A stretch of 32,000 nt of DNA from Vibrio penaeicida (GCF_002933855.1 NZ_BFAQ01000011.1:29442-61441); one strand, 5' to 3'; counted from the stretch's first letter, positions 9,367 through 20,792 are shown. The notes: generated by a model not told the origin, from the letters alone. Numbers and translations are program-made.

Positions 9367-9600
9367 ATGGCTACGTTTATCGTTACATTTGGATTTTTCT
9401 TGGCAATTGTCACCGCCATGTCTGTCGGTTACATCTTCCAAAAGAAAGTTGTGAGAGGAAGTTGTGGCGGATTGGATGCCGTTGGCATTGATAAAGTGTG
9501 TAACTGTCCAGAACCATGTGATGCGCGTAAAAAGCGTGAAGCACGTGAGGCAATCCGTGCTGAAAAAATCGCTGCTTGGGAAAAAGATAAAATTCTCTAA
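9367..9600 (+). CDS. nqrM: Na+-NQR maturation protein NqrM (DUF539)
   Basis: 77 aa with one TM, then a Cys cluster (GSCGG...CNCPEPC) and a basic tail. It occupies the conserved position after apbE and has an AGGAG Shine-Dalgarno. Confidence 0.85.
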   Translation: MATFIVTFGFFLAIVTAMSVGYIFQKKVVRGSCGGLDAVGIDKVCNCPEPCDARKKREAREAIRAEKIAAWEKDKIL

Positions 9601-9641
9601 GCTTTTAGCTTAAGAAGCAGATAAAATCGAAGATGTTAAAA

Positions 9642-9672
9642 GTTCAGCCGTTGCTGAGCTTTTTTATTTTTT
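9642..9672. terminator. Rho-independent terminator closing the nqr operon (possibly bidirectional)
   Basis: GTTCAGC-CGTT-GCTGAGC forms a 7-bp stem with one G.U pair, followed by TTTTTTATTTTTT. On the other strand the stem is followed by TTTTAA, and it sits between convergent genes. Confidence 0.75.
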
Positions 9673-9724: not shown

Positions 9725-10099
9725 TTAAATCGATGGGCTGGTTAGCGTAACGGAGTAGCGCCATGGTTTCCCGTTTTCAGTATTGATTTCCATGCTGGCA
9801 TTTTTACCATCGTTTGTACTCAGTGTCAGCGACGGCAGTTCTAATGAAGTTGGTCCACCTCTCTCATTACAAGTAACGTTGCCGGTGAGCTCTACATTAC
9901 CTAATGAATCTGGCGTTATCTTCGCGAGGAATTTGCATTCCCCCGATACCGCTGCTCCCCATTCATTCGCTTCTAGGAAAGCTTCAAAATATTGGCGCTG
10001 ACCTTGTCGTTCTAGCGTAATACATGCCTTGTAGTCAAAATTAGCAGCTGCTGGAAAGCTGGTAGTGACCAACAATAAACACGTCATCCGAATGTTCAT
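9725..10099 (-). CDS. Small secreted Cys-containing protein of unknown function
   Basis: 124 aa with a signal peptide (MNIRMTCLLLVTTSFPAAA/NF) and four Cys in the mature part. The composition is beta-rich. An AGGTGA Shine-Dalgarno lies 5 nt upstream of the ATG, and the start is only 9 nt after the AsmA-like stop. I recognise no family. Confidence 0.6.
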   Translation of the reverse strand: MNIRMTCLLLVTTSFPAAANFDYKACITLERQGQRQYFEAFLEANEWGAAVSGECKFLAKITPDSLGNVELTGNVTCNERGGPTSLELPSLTLSTNDGKNASMEINTENGKPWRYSVTLTSPSI

Positions 10100-10108
10100 T
10101 CTTCACCT

Positions 10109-13100
10109 TTACTTCTTTATAGGGGTTCCGCGCGAAATCATTTCACACAGGTAGCTTCCATCGCTATCAAGCGGTTTTTCAACTAGCCAGCGAATCGGTG
10201 AAATAACTGGGCTGGTAGTGAATCGCACGGACGTTTCTAAGATCGCAGAAAACGGCACACTTAAGTCAAAGTCTTCAAAATTACCGGAAACTTCAATCGG
10301 TGTTTGAAGGCTAAATATCTGGGCTGATTTGGGTCTTGGCGCGAGATAAAGATCGAACGTTCTATCCGAGTAAGAAGCTGAAAAGTTACCATTTACTTGA
10401 ATACGCGTTGTGTCCAGTAACAAGTCCCGCTGCTGCAAATCACCATTTGTGATATCAAAGCCGCCTGCCACGCAATTTAGAACCGATTCCTGTTCCTTGG
10501 TAAAGCTAGGCAATATTGCATCGGTTAAATTGACGGCCCAAAGGTCGATTAAGTCCGCTTCAAACTCCTGTGGCCAAATAGAAAAACCAATAAACCCGTT
10601 AGCGTTATTCATGAGATTATCAGGAGTGTTGGCCAAACTGGTTAAATTAAAGTAAGTACTGAGATTTCCACCCATATCTGTCTTAGTATCGATACGTCTA
10701 GCGATAATACCGTAGTCAAAATGATGTACTTGCCCTTGAATAGCGATATCGAATTGGTCTTGTCGAGCTTCAATTTGCCCAGCCAAAGAAAAGGAGCCGC
10801 CAGGAATACTGATTTTTAATGGAGAGACACGTAATTTTCCATCCAATAGTGATAGCTTCGCGGATGTTGCGCCTAACCAATCATCACCTGAACGAACATT
10901 ACTTACCTCTATATCCATTTCTACGTTTGCCCATGATAAGCCTTCAGGGCTAACGACAAGTGGTTGTGTTGTGCTTTCTTCTACAGTTGGCTTGCGACTA
11001 GAGGTTTCTCGGTTAGCAGAATTCGGTATCCAAGCTTTCCAGTTGCCCACTTTAAAGTCGTCCATTTGAATCTGCGATGATGACAGGCTTAATACAATGT
11101 CAGGACGCGAATATTTCCCGAGTGGGCGGAATTGCCCAGTACCAATAAGCTCACTCTTACCGATATTGAGGACAAGTTGCTGTAATTGATATTGAACGTC
11201 ATCTAGCGATAACTTGGCCGATAAATCAATTGGACCATAAGGCGGAAGCTTGACCCCTGTGAACTCGTTAAGCCTATTTAAATTAGGAATAGCCGCGTTT
11301 AATTGGAGTTCCAATTGAGTGAAGTCCAGTGGTAGGGCAATGTCCGTTGAGGCTTCAATTTTTATATCACCAAGGGTAAAAAAGACATTAGCAGGTAAGC
11401 TTTCTGAAAGCCTATTGGCTTCTTTCAGAGAAACCGATTGGATGCTCAGTGTTGTTTTTTTATCCTGTACGGAGCCCGTCAGTAGCAGCTCGGTGTTGAG
11501 CTCCGGTCCGGTATGAAAATGCCCTTCCGAGATGTGAATGTCCATCGATTTTCCGGTATAGATATCCGGAACCTTGAGATACCCACCTTCAAGTAAAGCT
11601 TGTACTTGAGTCATCTCCATGAATTCAAGTAACGTTTTTCCTGAAAGTGATAAGCTTACTCGGGCACTATCTAATGCCATTTCCATGTCATCGGCGATGC
11701 CAAAGCTTTTAGCGATAGCAGCAATATTCGGTGAGTCAGCTTTAAGGTTAAGCGTTGAGGATATTTGAGCAGCGTTGATGCTAACAGCAAGATCGCCTGT
11801 CATTAGGTTGTCGGCGAGGCGCATTGAAAACGGCGCAGGTTTCATTATGCCGTTTCGAAGCTTACCCGAGAAGGTGATGTGTTTGAGGCTTTGATTTGAC
11901 CATCGCATATCACCGACATTTAGGTTGATATCCGCATCCACAATAGTAATGTCGTTACTCAAGATAGGAACGGAAAGGTTGACCCCTTGAGTTGGTATGG
12001 CTTGTTCTACTTCTGGTAACGTTTCTTCTTGTGCTAACAAGGCGAGTTGATTGAAATCCAATATAGAAAAATCAGCATCGATATCCACAAATGAGCGTTT
12101 AGGATCGTTTAACCATTTGAGTGCTAATGTCCCTTTGCTGTCCATAACACGAAGGTTTTGAGTGGAAAGTGTCAGCCACTCATTTTGATGTTCTAAGGTC
12201 GCATTGAGCTTTAGAGGTCCGCTAGCCCCTGACTGCGTACCTAACCAAGGTGAAAGTTTTGCGATATTCGGGCTCGATATGTCCAGCTTAAATTGGCTGC
12301 CAACTTGCCAGCGTGTTTCAGGGAGAGAGCCAAACGCGTGAATATTCAGTATTGGGCTGTCTAGTGTGATGGTCGTTTCCCAATCTCGCTTGTTGATGAT
12401 GTCTGACAGTGCCCCCGCTTTAGCTGTGATGGTAGCAGGCACACCTTGGAGGTTACCGCGAATATCGACATCGACTGGCTGGTTCATTCCTGCTTTAAAT
12501 CGCGCTTTCTCAATGGCATAGTTTGCACCTTCTGTCCAAGATATAGCGGCATTATCCAATGCAAAAGCGAGGCGACTGTTGTCTATCCATTCCTTAAGTT
12601 TGGTGCCTTCAGTTTGGACACTCAGTAACGCACTTTCAAGGTGACCATCTGCTTCTTCGATACCCGCCAGCCAATGAGCGAGTTCACCGAGTGGAGAGTC
12701 TTGGGCACCAAGCTCTATATTTAAAGTTGAAGACCATTCGGTTGCGTCAATTGATGCCTTCCCTCGGAAAGGAACTTGAGCGATATCGGCAGAAATGGGC
12801 GCGTTCAATGTTCCTTTCTCGCTTACGACGGCAAGAGATAGGTTTTTTATTTCTGTTCCAAGCCCTAATATTTCTCCTATAGAGACAGAAAGGTTGGTTT
12901 GGGTAGAGACCAGCCATTGATCAAGAGCTTGCTGCAGCGGGGACTTTTGCGGTGGTGCAGACGCATACCCCATCATTTGCTGTTCTGGCTCTGGTTGTAG
13001 CCAAGGCTTAAGATCGATCACAGGAATCGTGAGTTTGCCATCAATGGTGTTGACGTCACCAAGTGCAATGTCCAGATACCCTTCTGCTTGTGTGATAGGG

Positions 13101-14101
13101 CTATCCACGTTAAGCGACTTAATGTGCAGTGCGCCCTGTTTTGCCGATATGTCAGCGGAGATACTAAGTGGAGCTATATGATAGACATCGAGCCCCAGTA
13201 AGGCTTCAATAGGCTGTGTGTCGAGCCAGTCTAATTGGATGTTTGCCGTTGAAAGCGCTTTCCCGTTTGGTTGAATATTGGAATTGAATTCCAGAGAAGC
13301 GCCTGCGAAATGACCTTTGACGTCAAGAGAGCCTGTTTGGGCATTGAGGAGCTTTTCTATTTCTCCCGTGACACTCAGGTTGTATTCTTGACCTAATGCT
13401 GCCCCTTTGGTGTTGAGATGCCAAATTTTATCATCTTTGGTTAAATCAAATTCATCCAGAAACCAATCCACATAAGTTTGGGTATTCTGATCTTCGTAAA
13501 TCACACTTAAGCTTTTGGCTACGGCTTTCTCACCGAGTTTGACCGTCCAATGCGCTAGCTTGCTGTCTGAATTTAAGGGGCTATCTGAATTTAAACTGCT
13601 CTCTGAATTGTCGCTGCTTTCTGGTGCCACTCTGGTTACTTGGGGAGCAACAGATTCCGCCTGCTTTCCAATTGCCCAGTTTTCATTGCCATCCATATCT
13701 TTTGCTAGATAGAGATGGATCCCTTCCAAATCAATGTAATCAATGAATAGTGTGTTTTCGAATAAGGGGAATATCGCCACTTTTGCCGAAGCGTGCCCCA
13801 CACGCAGCAGCGGTTGCCACTCTATTGAAGGAATATTCGCGACTTCAATATTATTAATTTCCAACTCAGGCCTAAACGATACATGAAATCGGATATCGCC
13901 ATCAATTTTGACAGGTCGATTGATCTGGTTTTCGAGAATGCTGGATATTTTTGGCTTATGCGCCGTTAGGTTTATGTTGAACCCTACGGTAAGCGCGATA
14001 GCCAGTATTGCAATGAATGAAAGAAGGGTTATACCCAAATATTTCAAGGTTTGAAGCAGAACAAATGGCATTTTAGTTTTGGTGGCTGTTGGCGTATTCA
14101 T
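10109..14101 (-). CDS. AsmA-family giant envelope protein (AsmA/TamB/YhdP-like)
   Basis: 1330 aa. It has an N-terminal TM (YLGITLLSFIAILAIALTVGF), then the typical AsmA N-domain pattern (HKPKISSILENQINRPVKIDGDIRF...LEINNIEVAN...IDYIDLEGIHLYL..DGNENW). A long beta-rich body follows, and the C-terminus is AsmA_2-like (LSLLDGKLRVSPLKISIPGGSFSLAGQIE). The true start could be M11. Confidence 0.8.
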   Translation of the reverse strand: MNTPTATKTKMPFVLLQTLKYLGITLLSFIAILAIALTVGFNINLTAHKPKISSILENQINRPVKIDGDIRFHVSFRPELEINNIEVANIPSIEWQPLLRVGHASAKVAIFPLFENTLFIDYIDLEGIHLYLAKDMDGNENWAIGKQAESVAPQVTRVAPESSDNSESSLNSDSPLNSDSKLAHWTVKLGEKAVAKSLSVIYEDQNTQTYVDWFLDEFDLTKDDKIWHLNTKGAALGQEYNLSVTGEIEKLLNAQTGSLDVKGHFAGASLEFNSNIQPNGKALSTANIQLDWLDTQPIEALLGLDVYHIAPLSISADISAKQGALHIKSLNVDSPITQAEGYLDIALGDVNTIDGKLTIPVIDLKPWLQPEPEQQMMGYASAPPQKSPLQQALDQWLVSTQTNLSVSIGEILGLGTEIKNLSLAVVSEKGTLNAPISADIAQVPFRGKASIDATEWSSTLNIELGAQDSPLGELAHWLAGIEEADGHLESALLSVQTEGTKLKEWIDNSRLAFALDNAAISWTEGANYAIEKARFKAGMNQPVDVDIRGNLQGVPATITAKAGALSDIINKRDWETTITLDSPILNIHAFGSLPETRWQVGSQFKLDISSPNIAKLSPWLGTQSGASGPLKLNATLEHQNEWLTLSTQNLRVMDSKGTLALKWLNDPKRSFVDIDADFSILDFNQLALLAQEETLPEVEQAIPTQGVNLSVPILSNDITIVDADINLNVGDMRWSNQSLKHITFSGKLRNGIMKPAPFSMRLADNLMTGDLAVSINAAQISSTLNLKADSPNIAAIAKSFGIADDMEMALDSARVSLSLSGKTLLEFMEMTQVQALLEGGYLKVPDIYTGKSMDIHISEGHFHTGPELNTELLLTGSVQDKKTTLSIQSVSLKEANRLSESLPANVFFTLGDIKIEASTDIALPLDFTQLELQLNAAIPNLNRLNEFTGVKLPPYGPIDLSAKLSLDDVQYQLQQLVLNIGKSELIGTGQFRPLGKYSRPDIVLSLSSSQIQMDDFKVGNWKAWIPNSANRETSSRKPTVEESTTQPLVVSPEGLSWANVEMDIEVSNVRSGDDWLGATSAKLSLLDGKLRVSPLKISIPGGSFSLAGQIEARQDQFDIAIQGQVHHFDYGIIARRIDTKTDMGGNLSTYFNLTSLANTPDNLMNNANGFIGFSIWPQEFEADLIDLWAVNLTDAILPSFTKEQESVLNCVAGGFDITNGDLQQRDLLLDTTRIQVNGNFSASYSDRTFDLYLAPRPKSAQIFSLQTPIEVSGNFEDFDLSVPFSAILETSVRFTTSPVISPIRWLVEKPLDSDGSYLCEMISRGTPIKK

Positions 14102-14205
14102 AGCACGTTATACGGTGTGTCTGATGTCATATTAGGCGCAAAGGACAATAGCACAGACCCAAGCAAAAATATAAAGTTATGATCGCGATAATGAGAGTAC
14201 CGCAC

Positions 14206-14850
14206 CTAGTGCCGAGTACTTCGTTTTATGTAGATGCTTACGCGACGATTGGCTTTTCTTTGAGCTGCGAGTTCCACTGTATCTGATATTGTTGGGTAGG
14301 TATCTGCGTACGCGACAGCACTCAGTTTTGTCTTGTCGATAGACAAGGAAATCAGCTGTTTTGTTACGCCTATTGCTCTTGCACCGGAAAGCTCCCAGTT
14401 GCTATCGAAATGGTCGTTATGAATAGGTAAGTCATCTGTATGACCTTCGACGACAATTTCCTTTCCCTCCAAACTTGTACGTTCTATAGACGACGCAAAA
14501 ATTGTCAACAGCCGAACGCCTTCATTGCTTAACTTTGCGGAACCTTCTTCGTAAAGTGCTTCTGTGTCGAAATCCACTTTAATTCCATCAGGCATTTTCG
14601 TTAAGGAGATAGGCTCATGCTCAGTCGATTGCTTTAGGGCTTGAATGAGCAGGGTCATTGGCATCTCGGCTTTTCGATCCGATAGCGCGTTCCAACTGGC
14701 TTTCAGCTCTTCAAACTTTCCTTGGTCGATTTGAGAAGTGGCGAGAATAACGATGAAGAAAGTCATCAAAAGTGTAATGAAATCACTGTACGTTACTAGC
14801 CAGTCATTTTCTTCTCGGACATCGGCACCACTCTGTCTTCTGCGCGGCAT
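14206..14850 (-). CDS. MotB/PomB-type stator subunit with OmpA-like peptidoglycan-binding C-terminus
   Basis: 214 aa. The basic N-terminus is followed by WLVTYSDFITLLMTFFIVIL, a single TM with the conserved channel Asp (D23; compare E. coli MotB YADFMTAMM). The C-terminus is OmpA-like (VEGHTDD.P......SNWELSGARA...RRVSIYI). The start is 2 nt after the motA-like stop. Confidence 0.85.
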   Translation of the reverse strand: MPRRRQSGADVREENDWLVTYSDFITLLMTFFIVILATSQIDQGKFEELKASWNALSDRKAEMPMTLLIQALKQSTEHEPISLTKMPDGIKVDFDTEALYEEGSAKLSNEGVRLLTIFASSIERTSLEGKEIVVEGHTDDLPIHNDHFDSNWELSGARAIGVTKQLISLSIDKTKLSAVAYADTYPTISDTVELAAQRKANRRVSIYIKRSTRH

Positions 14851-18057: not shown

Positions 18058-19083
18058 TTAAAACCTCACGCCTAACGTTAGATCGAACGCAGGGTTGCCG
18101 CCCCATGTGCCGTTTTCAAAGGTGTCTTTGCTGATGTACATCAAACCGAGATCGACAAAAATATCCCCTTGAGTAAAGAAGGCATTTCGTGGTGGTGACA
18201 ATTCTAGCCCTGCACGTACGGCGATTTTTTGTTTGTTCTCAACAAACTGAAAGCCCGAACCCGCGTAAACAGATAACCAGTCATCGGTAATCGCATACAG
18301 TGCTCTAGCTTCTGCTCCAAAGCCTTGAATCGAAAAATTTGTACTGCCGTCAAAGTTGCGAAAATAGTTGCCGATAAAGGCAAAGTGAGCGCGTTCTGAT
18401 GGGGTGTGCCCGCTGTAGTAGCGTATAGAAAGGTCCGTTACATTTTGTATGTCTTCGCCATCAGTTGAGGTACCATTGATACCAATGTAACCAAGAGCGA
18501 CTCCGACTCCGCTCTCCTTTACATTCTTCTTTGCGAGCACATCCGGATCCTCCTTTATGTCGAAGTTTCCCGTCCATACCACTTCGTTATTTTGAGTGCT
18601 AACTAGTGACATAGTGATGTTGTGAGTATTGTCGCTAAGAGGCGAACGCCAGGTTAGGAAGGCGTCGACACGTATTTTCTTTCCGAGCTTACGCAGTTCA
18701 TCATTACTTGAAAGCCCATGCTTAAACTTTACGTTGGAGGCAGAGAGGTTGACTTGTGTTTTTCCACATTCGATACAGCTGCGTACTTTGATCCCATTGT
18801 TTTTCATTTTGGCAGTTAGGATCGATGTCAGCTTGAGCAGCTCGGTTTTTTCTTCATCCGTTACGGCTTTACCCTCGAAATACAAGGCGACACTTTGGAT
18901 CTTAGCTAAAGACTTGTTGTCTAAAATGTCGAACCAAAGATCATCGTGTTCTAAGAATTCTTCAACTGTTTGTGCTTCATTATCTTTTGCGGAGAAAAGT
19001 GCATTTAAAGGTTTGGAAAAAACAATCGAAGAGTAAGAAATTAAAAGGGTGCTAATGGTTAGAGTCGTGACTTTTTTCCACAT
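18058..19083 (-). CDS. Secreted two-domain protein, putative outer-membrane beta-barrel with N-terminal periplasmic alpha/beta domain
   Basis: 341 aa with signal peptide MWKKVTTLTISTLLISYSSIVFS/KP. The C-terminal ~170 aa show an alternating aromatic/small-residue strand pattern rich in G/Y/F and end ...FDLTLGVRF, the terminal-Phe OMP signature. The N-terminal half has alternating helix/strand character. The family is not recognised with certainty. Confidence 0.6.
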   Translation of the reverse strand: MWKKVTTLTISTLLISYSSIVFSKPLNALFSAKDNEAQTVEEFLEHDDLWFDILDNKSLAKIQSVALYFEGKAVTDEEKTELLKLTSILTAKMKNNGIKVRSCIECGKTQVNLSASNVKFKHGLSSNDELRKLGKKIRVDAFLTWRSPLSDNTHNITMSLVSTQNNEVVWTGNFDIKEDPDVLAKKNVKESGVGVALGYIGINGTSTDGEDIQNVTDLSIRYYSGHTPSERAHFAFIGNYFRNFDGSTNFSIQGFGAEARALYAITDDWLSVYAGSGFQFVENKQKIAVRAGLELSPPRNAFFTQGDIFVDLGLMYISKDTFENGTWGGNPAFDLTLGVRF

Positions 19084-19347: not shown

Positions 19348-20571
19348 TTAGCGAGCAACGAGGCGGTTTCGACCTTCTTCTTTTGCTTGATACAACAGAT
19401 CGTCAGCATCCCGAATAATTTCTTCTAGGTTTTGCTCTTCATTGCCAGAGCTAACACCAATACTCACTGTGAGATGAATTTGTAAATCTTCGTATTGAAC
19501 AGCCGTTTTCTCTATTCGTTGGCGCATCTTGTCTAGGCGACTTTGGAATTCTTGATAATCCCCACAGTGTTGAATACAGAACTCTTCACCACCAAATCTC
19601 ACCGCAATTTCATTTTTGAAGTAGATGGATATAATTTGCGCCACAGTAACCAGTGCTCTGTCGCCGCCATCATGACCATAGGTATCATTCACTTTCTTAA
19701 AGAAGTCGATATCAATCATGGCGATATTGCGATTGTCACAACATTTATTGTTGTTCTCACCGAACAAGTAGCGACGATTCCAAAGACCAGTTAACGCATC
19801 TTGGTTAGCGATGCGATAAAGCTCGTCGGTGGCGTCTTTCATATCCAGAATGTGTTGAACTCGACAATAGAATTCTTCTTGGTTGAAAGGCTTATAAAGG
19901 AAATCGTTAGCACCAGCTTTTAGAAATCGCGCCGTCATCGTGCGGTCGTTATTGCCAGACAGGCCCAGAATAGCCAAATGATTTCGATCATACTGATTTC
20001 TAATTTCTCTGGTCATAGTAATGCCGTCTTTATTCGGCATGTCATGATCGGTAATTATCATAGTGATGTCTGGGTTTTCCGCTAAAATATCAATAGCTTG
20101 CTGCCCATCATTTGCTTGCAAGGTATCAATGTACTGATGCTCAAGGAGATACACTACATGGTTTCTAACGGTAATTGAGTCATCGACAACCAATGCTTTG
20201 TGTGTATGGTTCGCCATCAATCGCTTTAGAAGTGGGATCAAATAGGATACAGAAGCGCTACTGTCTTTGGTGATGTAATCGAGTACACCTTTAGCAATAA
20301 CATGTTCACGGACGTTTTCATTAAACTGAGCGGTGAGAACAATCGCACGAACTTTATGCGATAAAACGAGATCGATAATTTCCCCGTCTGGACCGTCGGG
20401 TAAGCAATAATCCAATACAGCGCATAGAAAGTTAGTATCTTGTCTTATTATGTTATTTGCCGCTTCTAACGACTCCGCTAAGACAACTTCAAAACCAATT
20501 TGCTTAAGCTGCGAGTTAAGGTAATTACGAAAGGCTCGACTATCCTCGACAACCAAAATCCGATTTAGCAC
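19348..20571 (-). CDS. Response regulator diguanylate cyclase (REC-REC-GGDEF, PleD-like architecture)
   Basis: 407 aa. GTG start with GGAG 5 nt upstream. REC1 has VVEDS...AVLDYCLPDG...YITKD. REC2 has VVDDS...IITDHDMPNKDG...FLYKPF. The GGDEF domain has ALTGLWNRRY, DIDFFKKVNDTYGHDGGD and the active site RFGGEEF. Confidence 0.9.
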   Translation of the reverse strand: MLNRILVVEDSRAFRNYLNSQLKQIGFEVVLAESLEAANNIIRQDTNFLCAVLDYCLPDGPDGEIIDLVLSHKVRAIVLTAQFNENVREHVIAKGVLDYITKDSSASVSYLIPLLKRLMANHTHKALVVDDSITVRNHVVYLLEHQYIDTLQANDGQQAIDILAENPDITMIITDHDMPNKDGITMTREIRNQYDRNHLAILGLSGNNDRTMTARFLKAGANDFLYKPFNQEEFYCRVQHILDMKDATDELYRIANQDALTGLWNRRYLFGENNNKCCDNRNIAMIDIDFFKKVNDTYGHDGGDRALVTVAQIISIYFKNEIAVRFGGEEFCIQHCGDYQEFQSRLDKMRQRIEKTAVQYEDLQIHLTVSIGVSSGNEEQNLEEIIRDADDLLYQAKEEGRNRLVAR

Positions 20572-20772
20572 CAGAGCTCCAAATTCTTCTTATTCTTTAA
20601 TTGACCTGTTTGTTAAGTCTAATCACAAAAGTGAGTACTGCCACAAAAAAACAGGTTTTTTCCATGGTCGTAAAAAGGATGAGACAGAATACGCAGTTGT
20701 TGAGCTTTTTGAACTGCCAAAATTTGTCAGGAGAGTTTGGTAAATGCTGTGCAATGCTTCAGACTTTTATTA

Positions 20773-20792
20773 TACTGATTTTTTATACAGTA
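20773..20792 (+). promoter_or_regulatory. LexA (SOS) box upstream of dinB
   Basis: TACTGATTTTTTATACAGTA fits the gammaproteobacterial consensus TACTG-N10-CAGTA exactly at both arms. It lies 23 nt upstream of the dinB ATG. Confidence 0.8.

Follow-up and report, generated by a model that had tools for sequence, protein, structure and literature searches.

A YhjG-type AsmA-family gene of Vibrio penaeicida and its probable lineage-specific juxtaposition with a flagellar-type motor cassette

The AsmA-like proteins of Escherichia coli and the Vibrio penaeicida homologue

The AsmA-like proteins of Escherichia coli are the closest described counterparts of the gene examined in this study. Three of them, YhdP, TamB and YdbH, are phospholipid bridges whose N-terminus is anchored in the inner membrane and whose long, beta-rich body lies in the periplasm, and the V. 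penaeicida protein resembles them in both respects, its length being comparable to that of YhdP and TamB. How AsmA-like transport is powered is still an open question, but the proton motive force is required for bulk phospholipid exchange (PMC10345924). Our study concerns 32 000 nucleotides of V. penaeicida DNA (GCF_002933855.1, NZ_BFAQ01000011.1:29442-61441), referred to throughout as the window, in which an AsmA-family gene follows, on the same strand, a MotB-like gene that closes a cassette encoding MotA-, MotB- and FliG-like proteins (Table 1). A sequence-only reading of this stretch had proposed a functional link between the two, and, with the driver of AsmA bridges still open (PMC10345924), a genomic tie between such a bridge and an ion-driven motor would have been worth following. 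The comparative data point to a local juxtaposition, which spares effort on a weak hypothesis, and we consider it probable that the AsmA gene belongs to a stand-alone unit of the YhjG type that has come to lie beside a separate motor cassette in one lineage. Two better-supported leads emerged, namely the recurrent location of YhjG-type AsmA genes near enzymes of cyclic di-GMP (c-di-GMP) metabolism and a widespread non-flagellar cassette of FliG, MotAB, TPR and outer-membrane protein (OMP) genes.

The six AsmA-like paralogues of E. coli K-12 were searched with a profile of the AsmA clade. YhjG scored best (125 bits), followed by AsmA (55 bits), and there was no significant match to E. coli YhdP, TamB, YdbH or YicH. 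By best profile score YhjG is the closest E. coli paralogue, as a putative orthologue only. The profile aligns with both ends of YhjG (686 aa; residues 11-163 and 247-672), both proteins match PF05170, and each gene has a c-di-GMP turnover gene nearby, pdeH in E. coli and a REC-REC-GGDEF cyclase gene in the window. The window protein differs from YhjG in being nearly twice as long, with approximately 700 central residues that have no YhjG counterpart and that fall where YhjG residues ~163 to 247 leave a gap in the profile alignment. Mutants of E. coli yhjG have no reported phenotype (PMC8593681), so the family is the only guide to the function of the window protein.

Other assignments were rejected. 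E. coli AsmA (617 aa) belongs to the same Pfam family and has the same AsmA-type N- and C-terminal regions, but the NCBIfam AsmA equivalog NF008091 matched the window protein only in part (residues 923-1156, 52.5 bits against a cut-off of 412), far too low for an AsmA orthologue. YhdP was rejected since the PF13116 match was N-terminal only (24 bits against a cut-off of 46) and the clade profile did not match E. coli YhdP; this N-terminal match and one to DUF748 were both weak and under their cut-offs. TamB and the TAM system were rejected in the absence of any DUF490/TamB match in Pfam or NCBIfam, the clade profile also missing E. coli TamB. The Pfam scan of the window gene row found no Omp85 (TamA) gene, and no YnbE/YdbL-type partner gene lies beside the AsmA gene.

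By sequence, the window protein is a member of the known AsmA-like family (PF05170, 129.4 bits, E 2.5e-37, gathering cut-off 29.8), of the YhjG type with a large central expansion. The PF05170 cut-off was exceeded separately by its N-terminal and C-terminal pieces, and the protein is 94 % identical to an 'AsmA family protein' from another V. penaeicida strain. The N-terminal hydrophobic segment is its only one (maximum 2.44, Kyte–Doolittle scale, 19-residue window), and from hydropathy alone we predict a single N-terminal transmembrane anchor with the remainder in the periplasm. Scanned as a separate piece, the central region (residues ~252-959) gave no Pfam match. An AlphaFold2 model of residues 131-1330, built on a 19-sequence alignment (mean predicted local distance difference test score, pLDDT, 70.5), contains approximately 70 beta-strands arranged as hairpins, plus short helices, and Foldseek searches against the PDB returned nothing beyond weak matches of low TM score, to the ApoB100 beta-belt, LptD and TamB (9xdd_B).

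These results bear out much of the sequence-only reading, which had described a 1330-aa AsmA-family protein on the strand of the MotB-like gene (as the list of open reading frames, ORFs, and the PF05170 score confirm), an N-terminal transmembrane segment, an AsmA N-terminal region and a beta-rich body (hydropathy, PF05170 pieces and the AlphaFold2 model), a 104-bp gap after the MotB-like gene (computed), and neighbours forming a MotA/MotB/FliG-like cassette with TPR and OMP-like proteins (Pfam). Its 'AsmA_2-like' C-terminus was right in part, as this region matches the C-terminal part of PF05170, but no PF13502 AsmA_2 match was returned by the Pfam scan. The label 'giant' is fitting in a relative sense only, E. 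coli YhdP and TamB measuring 1266 and 1259 aa.

Distribution of the AsmA gene and of the motor cassette

AsmA orthologues were sought with single-sequence and profile searches. Full-length orthologues were found in at least 13 named Photobacterium species, Veronia pacifica, V. penaeicida and unnamed metagenomic entries, and the Vibrio nigripulchritudo orthologue was identified at its cassette locus by tblastn. Among the orthologues found, the clade is limited to the Vibrionaceae, and neither the single-sequence nor the profile searches returned an Aliivibrio orthologue. Seven contexts outside Vibrio were compared, in which the orthologues show 42-52 % identity: Photobacterium jeanii, P. sanctipauli, P. 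aphoticum, P. damselae, Veronia pacifica and the metagenomic contigs L003 and L020. The cassette was absent from all seven within 10 kb on each side (approximately 6 kb downstream in P. aphoticum), and most of these orthologues stand alone, with an intergenic region of approximately 280-510 bp in front.

Cassette loci were located through searches for FliG-like homologues and a scan of species-representative genomes, and were compared to the window proteins by tblastn, alongside Pfam lists. The genes for the OMP-like, TPR, FliG-like, MotA and MotB proteins make up a five-gene cassette whose genes overlap and which has been conserved in Vibrio, Aliivibrio and a Shewanellaceae metagenome-assembled genome (MAG); the TPR gene is present in every copy. 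The full cassette occurs with no adjoining AsmA gene in Aliivibrio fischeri, A. logei, A. finisterrensis and the Shewanellaceae MAG UBA2521. In the three Aliivibrio species motB is the last gene, a convergent molybdopterin oxidoreductase gene lies opposite, and no AsmA-sized ORF is found within 10 kb of the cassette. In the Shewanellaceae MAG, small ORFs on the opposite strand come after motB, along with a gene for a metalloprotease-like lipoprotein that is unrelated. In a Bacteriovoracaceae MAG (L017 2567-6120), a gene for a distant FliG-like fusion (20 % identity) is followed by a TPR/PEGA gene and then an OMP-like gene, and neither MotAB nor AsmA genes occur on this 9-kb contig; it may be this FliG-like/TPR/OMP trio that forms the conserved core of the cassette.

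Among the lineages examined, the AsmA gene and the cassette occur together only in V. penaeicida and V. nigripulchritudo, and in the latter an AsmA gene (65 % identity) and a 124-aa ORF follow motB, as in V. penaeicida. Co-occurrence of this AsmA clade with the MotAB/FliG-like genes across genomes had been set beforehand as a test of the proposed functional link, and no co-conservation was found. The link is not upheld, adjacency being limited to one lineage, with the cassette alone in four lineages and the AsmA gene alone in seven of seven contexts. Because the cassette is found without the AsmA gene and the AsmA gene without the cassette, each unit exists, and presumably works, without the other, and an adjacency that is confined to one Vibrio lineage is weak evidence for a motor-driven lipid bridge.

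Transcription units and alternative explanations

We infer every statement on transcription made here from sequence. The AsmA gene is set off by 104 nt before it, compared to 9 nt after it. The spacer before it ranges from 104 bp (window) through 155 bp (V. penaeicida strain 6E01) to approximately 190 bp (V. nigripulchritudo), and its alignment across the three is conserved only nearest the AsmA start. Here lies an extended -10-like motif, TGCTATTGT, which starts 52 nt before the start codon. Its pattern, TGnTATnnT, does not vary among seven aligned AsmA upstream regions, which represent four genomic contexts, and is followed 7-9 nt on by a AATAAAAC-like box in V. nigripulchritudo, P. jeanii, P. 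sanctipauli, P. aphoticum and L020. The motif with its box is also found upstream of the orthologue in Veronia, as the variant TGGTAGAGT in P. damselae and in degenerate form in L003. The chance of its occurrence was estimated at approximately 8e-10, as the product of per-sequence shuffle probabilities over six lineages, for a motif chosen post hoc. We regard TGCTATTGT as a candidate canonical promoter element and the putative promoter of the AsmA gene, which appears to carry the same cis-element across the inspected genomic contexts, including behind motB.

The earlier statement that the gap holds no terminator stands for the window strain but not for its relatives, as a strong stem-loop occupies this place in the sister strain and the sister species. 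In 6E01 and V. nigripulchritudo, the interval from motB to the motif contains a stable stem-loop (z about -2.6) with a T-rich tract behind it. The window spacer lacks a 51-nt segment of 6E01 that holds the hairpin (at window position about 14170-14180), with the flanking sequence kept. The hairpins on the motB side are suggestive of unit separators, operon insulation may differ between V. penaeicida strains, and read-through from the cassette into the AsmA gene is possible in the window strain. The possibility that the spacer holds a riboswitch or another known RNA was rejected, as Rfam gave no match anywhere in the window, and the relatives' intergenic hairpins were rejected as repeated elements, not being repeated in the sequences compared.

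On its other side, the AsmA gene is followed by the 124-aa ORF, which is probably co-transcribed with it. Partner genes of the E. coli AsmA family share bases or lie directly against each other: the overlap is 4 nt in both tamA/tamB and ydbH/ynbE, and 7 nt separate ynbE from the ydbL gene behind it. Unlike the tamA/tamB and ydbH/ynbE pairs, motB neither overlaps nor abuts the window AsmA gene, and on this precedent the likely partner would be the product of the 124-aa ORF rather than MotB. We propose it as a candidate lineage-specific partner of the AsmA protein.

In the explanation that we favour, the AsmA protein would be an ordinary, though long, member of its family, of the YhjG type with approximately 700 extra beta-groove residues, held in the inner membrane by one N-terminal helix and crossing the periplasm as an elongated beta-sheet groove. 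Its gene and the secreted 124-aa ORF would form their own two-gene unit, driven by the extended -10-type promoter and ending at the hairpin at 9638-9663. The position after motB would reflect two units of separate distribution that have come to lie side by side in the V. penaeicida / V. nigripulchritudo clade, and not a conserved functional partnership, and loss of the separating hairpin of its relatives would make some cassette read-through possible in the window strain. Given the lineage-specific adjacency and the gene's own conserved upstream element, mechanical or energetic coupling is unlikely.

Several points weigh against this explanation. The promoter is a motif match only, and a sigma-70 scanner that requires a -35 element found no -35/-10 promoter in the gap. 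A simple terminator scanner found none in the window's 104-bp gap, and the stem-loops of 6E01 and V. nigripulchritudo also fail its terminator criteria. Same-strand adjacency has been kept in two species despite a protein identity of only 61-65 %. The genomic context covers approximately six independent cassette-bearing lineages of approximately 190 FliG-like clusters. Finally, the most likely role of the AsmA protein, lipid movement between the membranes as an inner-membrane-anchored periplasmic beta-groove protein, is taken from its family alone.

A regulatory coupling, in which loss of the hairpin lets the cassette transcript enter the AsmA unit and so gives co-expression without physical coupling, is a possibility that we put forward tentatively; it is compatible with the juxtaposition that we favour. 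The 51-nt hairpin segment missing between kept flanks and the gap's empty terminator scan both speak for it, but the residual T-rich tract and the promoter-like motif are uninformative on the efficiency of read-through.

It is less probable, and in our judgement unlikely, that the YhjG-type AsmA protein is tied functionally to c-di-GMP signalling, its expression or activity depending on the REC-REC-GGDEF cyclase, and not to the motor, for example in envelope or lipid remodelling as cells adopt a surface or biofilm lifestyle, with the cassette simply located between the two genes in this lineage. A similar cyclase does recur near the AsmA orthologue: REC-REC-GGDEF proteins of 406-409 aa, 47-49 % identical to that of the window and matching it in length, are encoded 0.6-7 kb from it in P. 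jeanii, P. sanctipauli and L020, and in both Vibrio species the cyclase gene lies within 11 kb, flanking the block of AsmA and cassette genes. This proximity is seen in three flanking backgrounds (shared Photobacterium, L020 and Vibrio). In E. coli K-12 (L024 8291-11188), the c-di-GMP phosphodiesterase gene pdeH is followed on its own strand by yhjG after 69 nt, and dgcE and asmA are three genes apart. YhjG-type AsmA genes may, on this pattern, be linked to c-di-GMP turnover. However, the cyclase was not found within 10 kb on either side of the AsmA gene in four of the seven non-Vibrio contexts (L003, P. aphoticum with its ~6 kb downstream, Veronia and P. damselae). GGDEF genes are so numerous in the Vibrionaceae that chance proximity is plausible, the cyclases are putative orthologues, and the Pfam scan showed no PilZ or other c-di-GMP receptor domain in the AsmA protein. 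A single insertion event, placing the cassette between an AsmA gene and a cyclase gene that were ancestrally paired, was rejected, as the order is AsmA-cyclase in L020 and cyclase-cassette-AsmA in the window.

We regard as very improbable the reading in which the AsmA bridge is itself part of the motor, the MotAB/FliG-like rotary unit energising or gating the transport of lipid or protein through the groove to the OM barrel, at least in V. penaeicida and V. nigripulchritudo. Adjacency on one strand in both species of the clade, the lack of a scanner-detected terminator in the window strain's gap and a cassette that spans inner-membrane, periplasmic and probable outer-membrane (OM) parts are consistent with it, and it fits the open question of the driver and the dependence of phospholipid exchange on the proton motive force (PMC10345924). 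Its conceptual precedent is found in TolQR-Pal and ExbBD-TonB, 5:2 ion-driven motors that serve outer-membrane processes; the window MotA/MotB-like pair belongs to the same superfamily (Pfam MotA_ExbB). The window stator differs in resembling flagellar PomA/MotB and in being accompanied by a FliG-like rotor protein, and TolQR-Pal and ExbBD-TonB co-conserve the motor with a periplasm-spanning effector, whereas the window AsmA protein and motor are not co-conserved. Neither the four cassette lineages outside the clade nor the FliG-like trio without MotAB have an AsmA-family gene nearby, the cassette is found in none of the seven AsmA contexts outside the clade, and no Aliivibrio orthologue of the AsmA clade was detected. 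The AsmA gene, moreover, keeps its conserved promoter-like element wherever it is located, hairpins part the two units in relatives, and the spacer is loose and variable in length compared to the tightly packed cassette genes.

Just as improbable, in our view, is a lineage-specific recruitment that joined an expanded YhjG-type AsmA bridge and a small secreted partner to the non-flagellar FliG/MotAB cassette, under which the passage of lipid or protein along the AsmA-like groove would be powered or gated by ion-motive force, which would be the first energy source dedicated to a bridge-like lipid transporter; by the sequence comparisons, the pairing is neither ancestral nor required by either partner elsewhere.

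The cassette, the small ORF and flanking features

The cassette is a more unusual object of the region than the AsmA gene, and literature searches found no paper describing it or an AsmA-motor link. On Pfam domains over their cut-offs and the Asp in the MotB transmembrane segment, its stator and rotor proteins are of the flagellar type. The MotB-like protein matches MotB_plug (62 bits) and OmpA (49 bits), and its conserved Asp23 was read from the sequence in a 'YSDFITLL' stretch. In the FliG-like protein, FliG_M and FliG_C scored 51.6 and 52.1 bits and YscJ_FliF_C, at 23.0, fell just under its cut-off; its transmembrane segment covers residues 230-262, and its sequence matches an NCBI V. penaeicida entry at 100 % identity. 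All NCBIfam flagellar equivalogs were under their cut-offs, including MotD/MotB for the MotB-like protein and PomA/MotP/MotA for the MotA-like protein, so the cassette proteins are not orthologues of the canonical flagellar proteins. The 341-aa OMP-like protein had no Pfam match; its alignment shows an invariant C-terminal R-F and an alternating pattern, which make it a candidate outer-membrane barrel. The genes are tightly packed (OMP-like/TPR +3, TPR/FliG-like -16, FliG-like/MotA -1 and MotA/MotB +2 nt). As a whole, the cassette looks like a self-contained, non-flagellar rotor-stator machine. A Zorya anti-phage system was rejected, as PADLOC gave generic ZorB (MotB-like) matches only, with no ZorA match for the 259-aa MotA-like protein and no Zorya matches for the other window proteins.

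The FliG-like fusion family comprises 193 clusters at 50 % identity (HMMER, exhaustive, E<1e-30), with members that include V. agarivorans, Vibrio sp. SCSIO 43136, a Saccharospirillaceae MAG and Bacteriovoracaceae. A metagenome scan with the FliG-like alignment recovered the Shewanellaceae MAG again and nothing further, and a plasmid origin of the FliG-like gene was rejected on a tblastn search of plasmids that gave no match. The lipoprotein beyond the cassette of the Shewanellaceae MAG (L007 12002-14365) has 787 aa, approximately 15 tandem QGGQPD repeats and a HEMGH zinc-protease motif, and is unrelated to AsmA.

Table 1. Locations of the features discussed, in window coordinates unless another sequence is named
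Feature	Location	Strand	Basis
AsmA-family gene (YhjG-like, expanded), 1330 aa, ATG start	10109..14101	-	ORF list and Pfam
Single hydrophobic segment, residues 13-48; predicted inner-membrane anchor	13958..14065	-	Kyte-Doolittle
AsmA-type N-terminal region, residues 18-251	13349..14050	-	PF05170 profile positions 4-222
Central beta-rich expansion, ~700 residues (252-959)	11225..13348	-	AlphaFold2 beta-hairpins
AsmA-type C-terminal region, residues 960-1225	10427..11224	-	PF05170 profile positions 331-605 of 607
motB-to-AsmA spacer, 104 bp	14102..14205	-	Computed gap
Extended -10-like motif (candidate promoter element)	14145..14153	-	
124-aa ORF with signal-peptide-like N-terminus, 9 nt downstream of the AsmA gene	9725..10099	-	ORF list
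Hairpin flanked on either side by T/A runs, located between nqrM and the 124-aa ORF	9638..9663	.	Terminator-like, 11 pairs
MotB-like gene: plug, transmembrane segment with Asp23, OmpA-like peptidoglycan-binding domain; last cassette gene	14206..14850	-	
MotA/PomA-like stator gene, 259 aa	14853..15632	-	Pfam MotA_ExbB, 70.6 bits
FliG-like gene: FliF_C-like periplasmic region, one transmembrane segment, cytoplasmic FliG_M and FliG_C; 616 aa	15632..17482	-	
TPR protein with signal peptide, 195 aa	17467..18054	-	Pfam TPR_2, TPR_11, TPR_1
341-aa OMP-like protein: signal peptide, conserved CxEC, C-terminal ...GVRF; first cassette gene	18058..19083	-	
REC-REC-GGDEF diguanylate cyclase (GGEEF motif)	19348..20571	-	Pfam Response_reg x2 and GGDEF
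motB-side stem-loop, V. penaeicida 6E01	L010 13311-13372		
motB-side stem-loop, V. nigripulchritudo	L016 about 9500-9570		
Cyclase near AsmA orthologue, P. jeanii	L001 16015-17244		
Cyclase near AsmA orthologue, P. sanctipauli	L018 21234-22457		
Cyclase near AsmA orthologue, contig L020	L020 14486-15706		

The 124-aa ORF has three conserved Cys residues and gave no Pfam, NCBIfam or PADLOC match. The only homologues found were those of V. penaeicida (85 %) and V. nigripulchritudo (52 %), and the ORF shows no detectable relationship to the small ORFs that flank Photobacterium AsmA orthologues. In P. jeanii, such small signal-peptide ORFs lie on either side of the orthologue (L001 8904-9710 and 14122-14772) and have weak OMP_b-brl matches; one of them ends in ...DYRF, and neither is homologous to the window ORF.

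The hairpin beyond the 124-aa ORF is likely a bidirectional terminator that ends the AsmA unit, with convergent nqr/apbE/nqrM genes on its far side. At the opposite end, the cyclase gene lies 264 bp upstream of the cassette. The block from the 124-aa ORF to the cyclase gene, approximately 11 kb, sits between nqrM and dinB, and has the same flanks in V. nigripulchritudo. In Vibrio cholerae, nqrM and dinB are neighbours. An 18-nt direct repeat (16/18 identical) is present at the block ends (9647-9664 and 20693-20710); approximately one such pair is expected by chance in the region, and the repeat was judged not distinguishable from chance as a mark of insertion. A LexA/SOS-box-like palindrome, TACTGATTTTTTATACAGTA, lies at 20773-20792 on the plus strand, approximately 20 nt upstream of the start codon of dinB (DNA polymerase IV).

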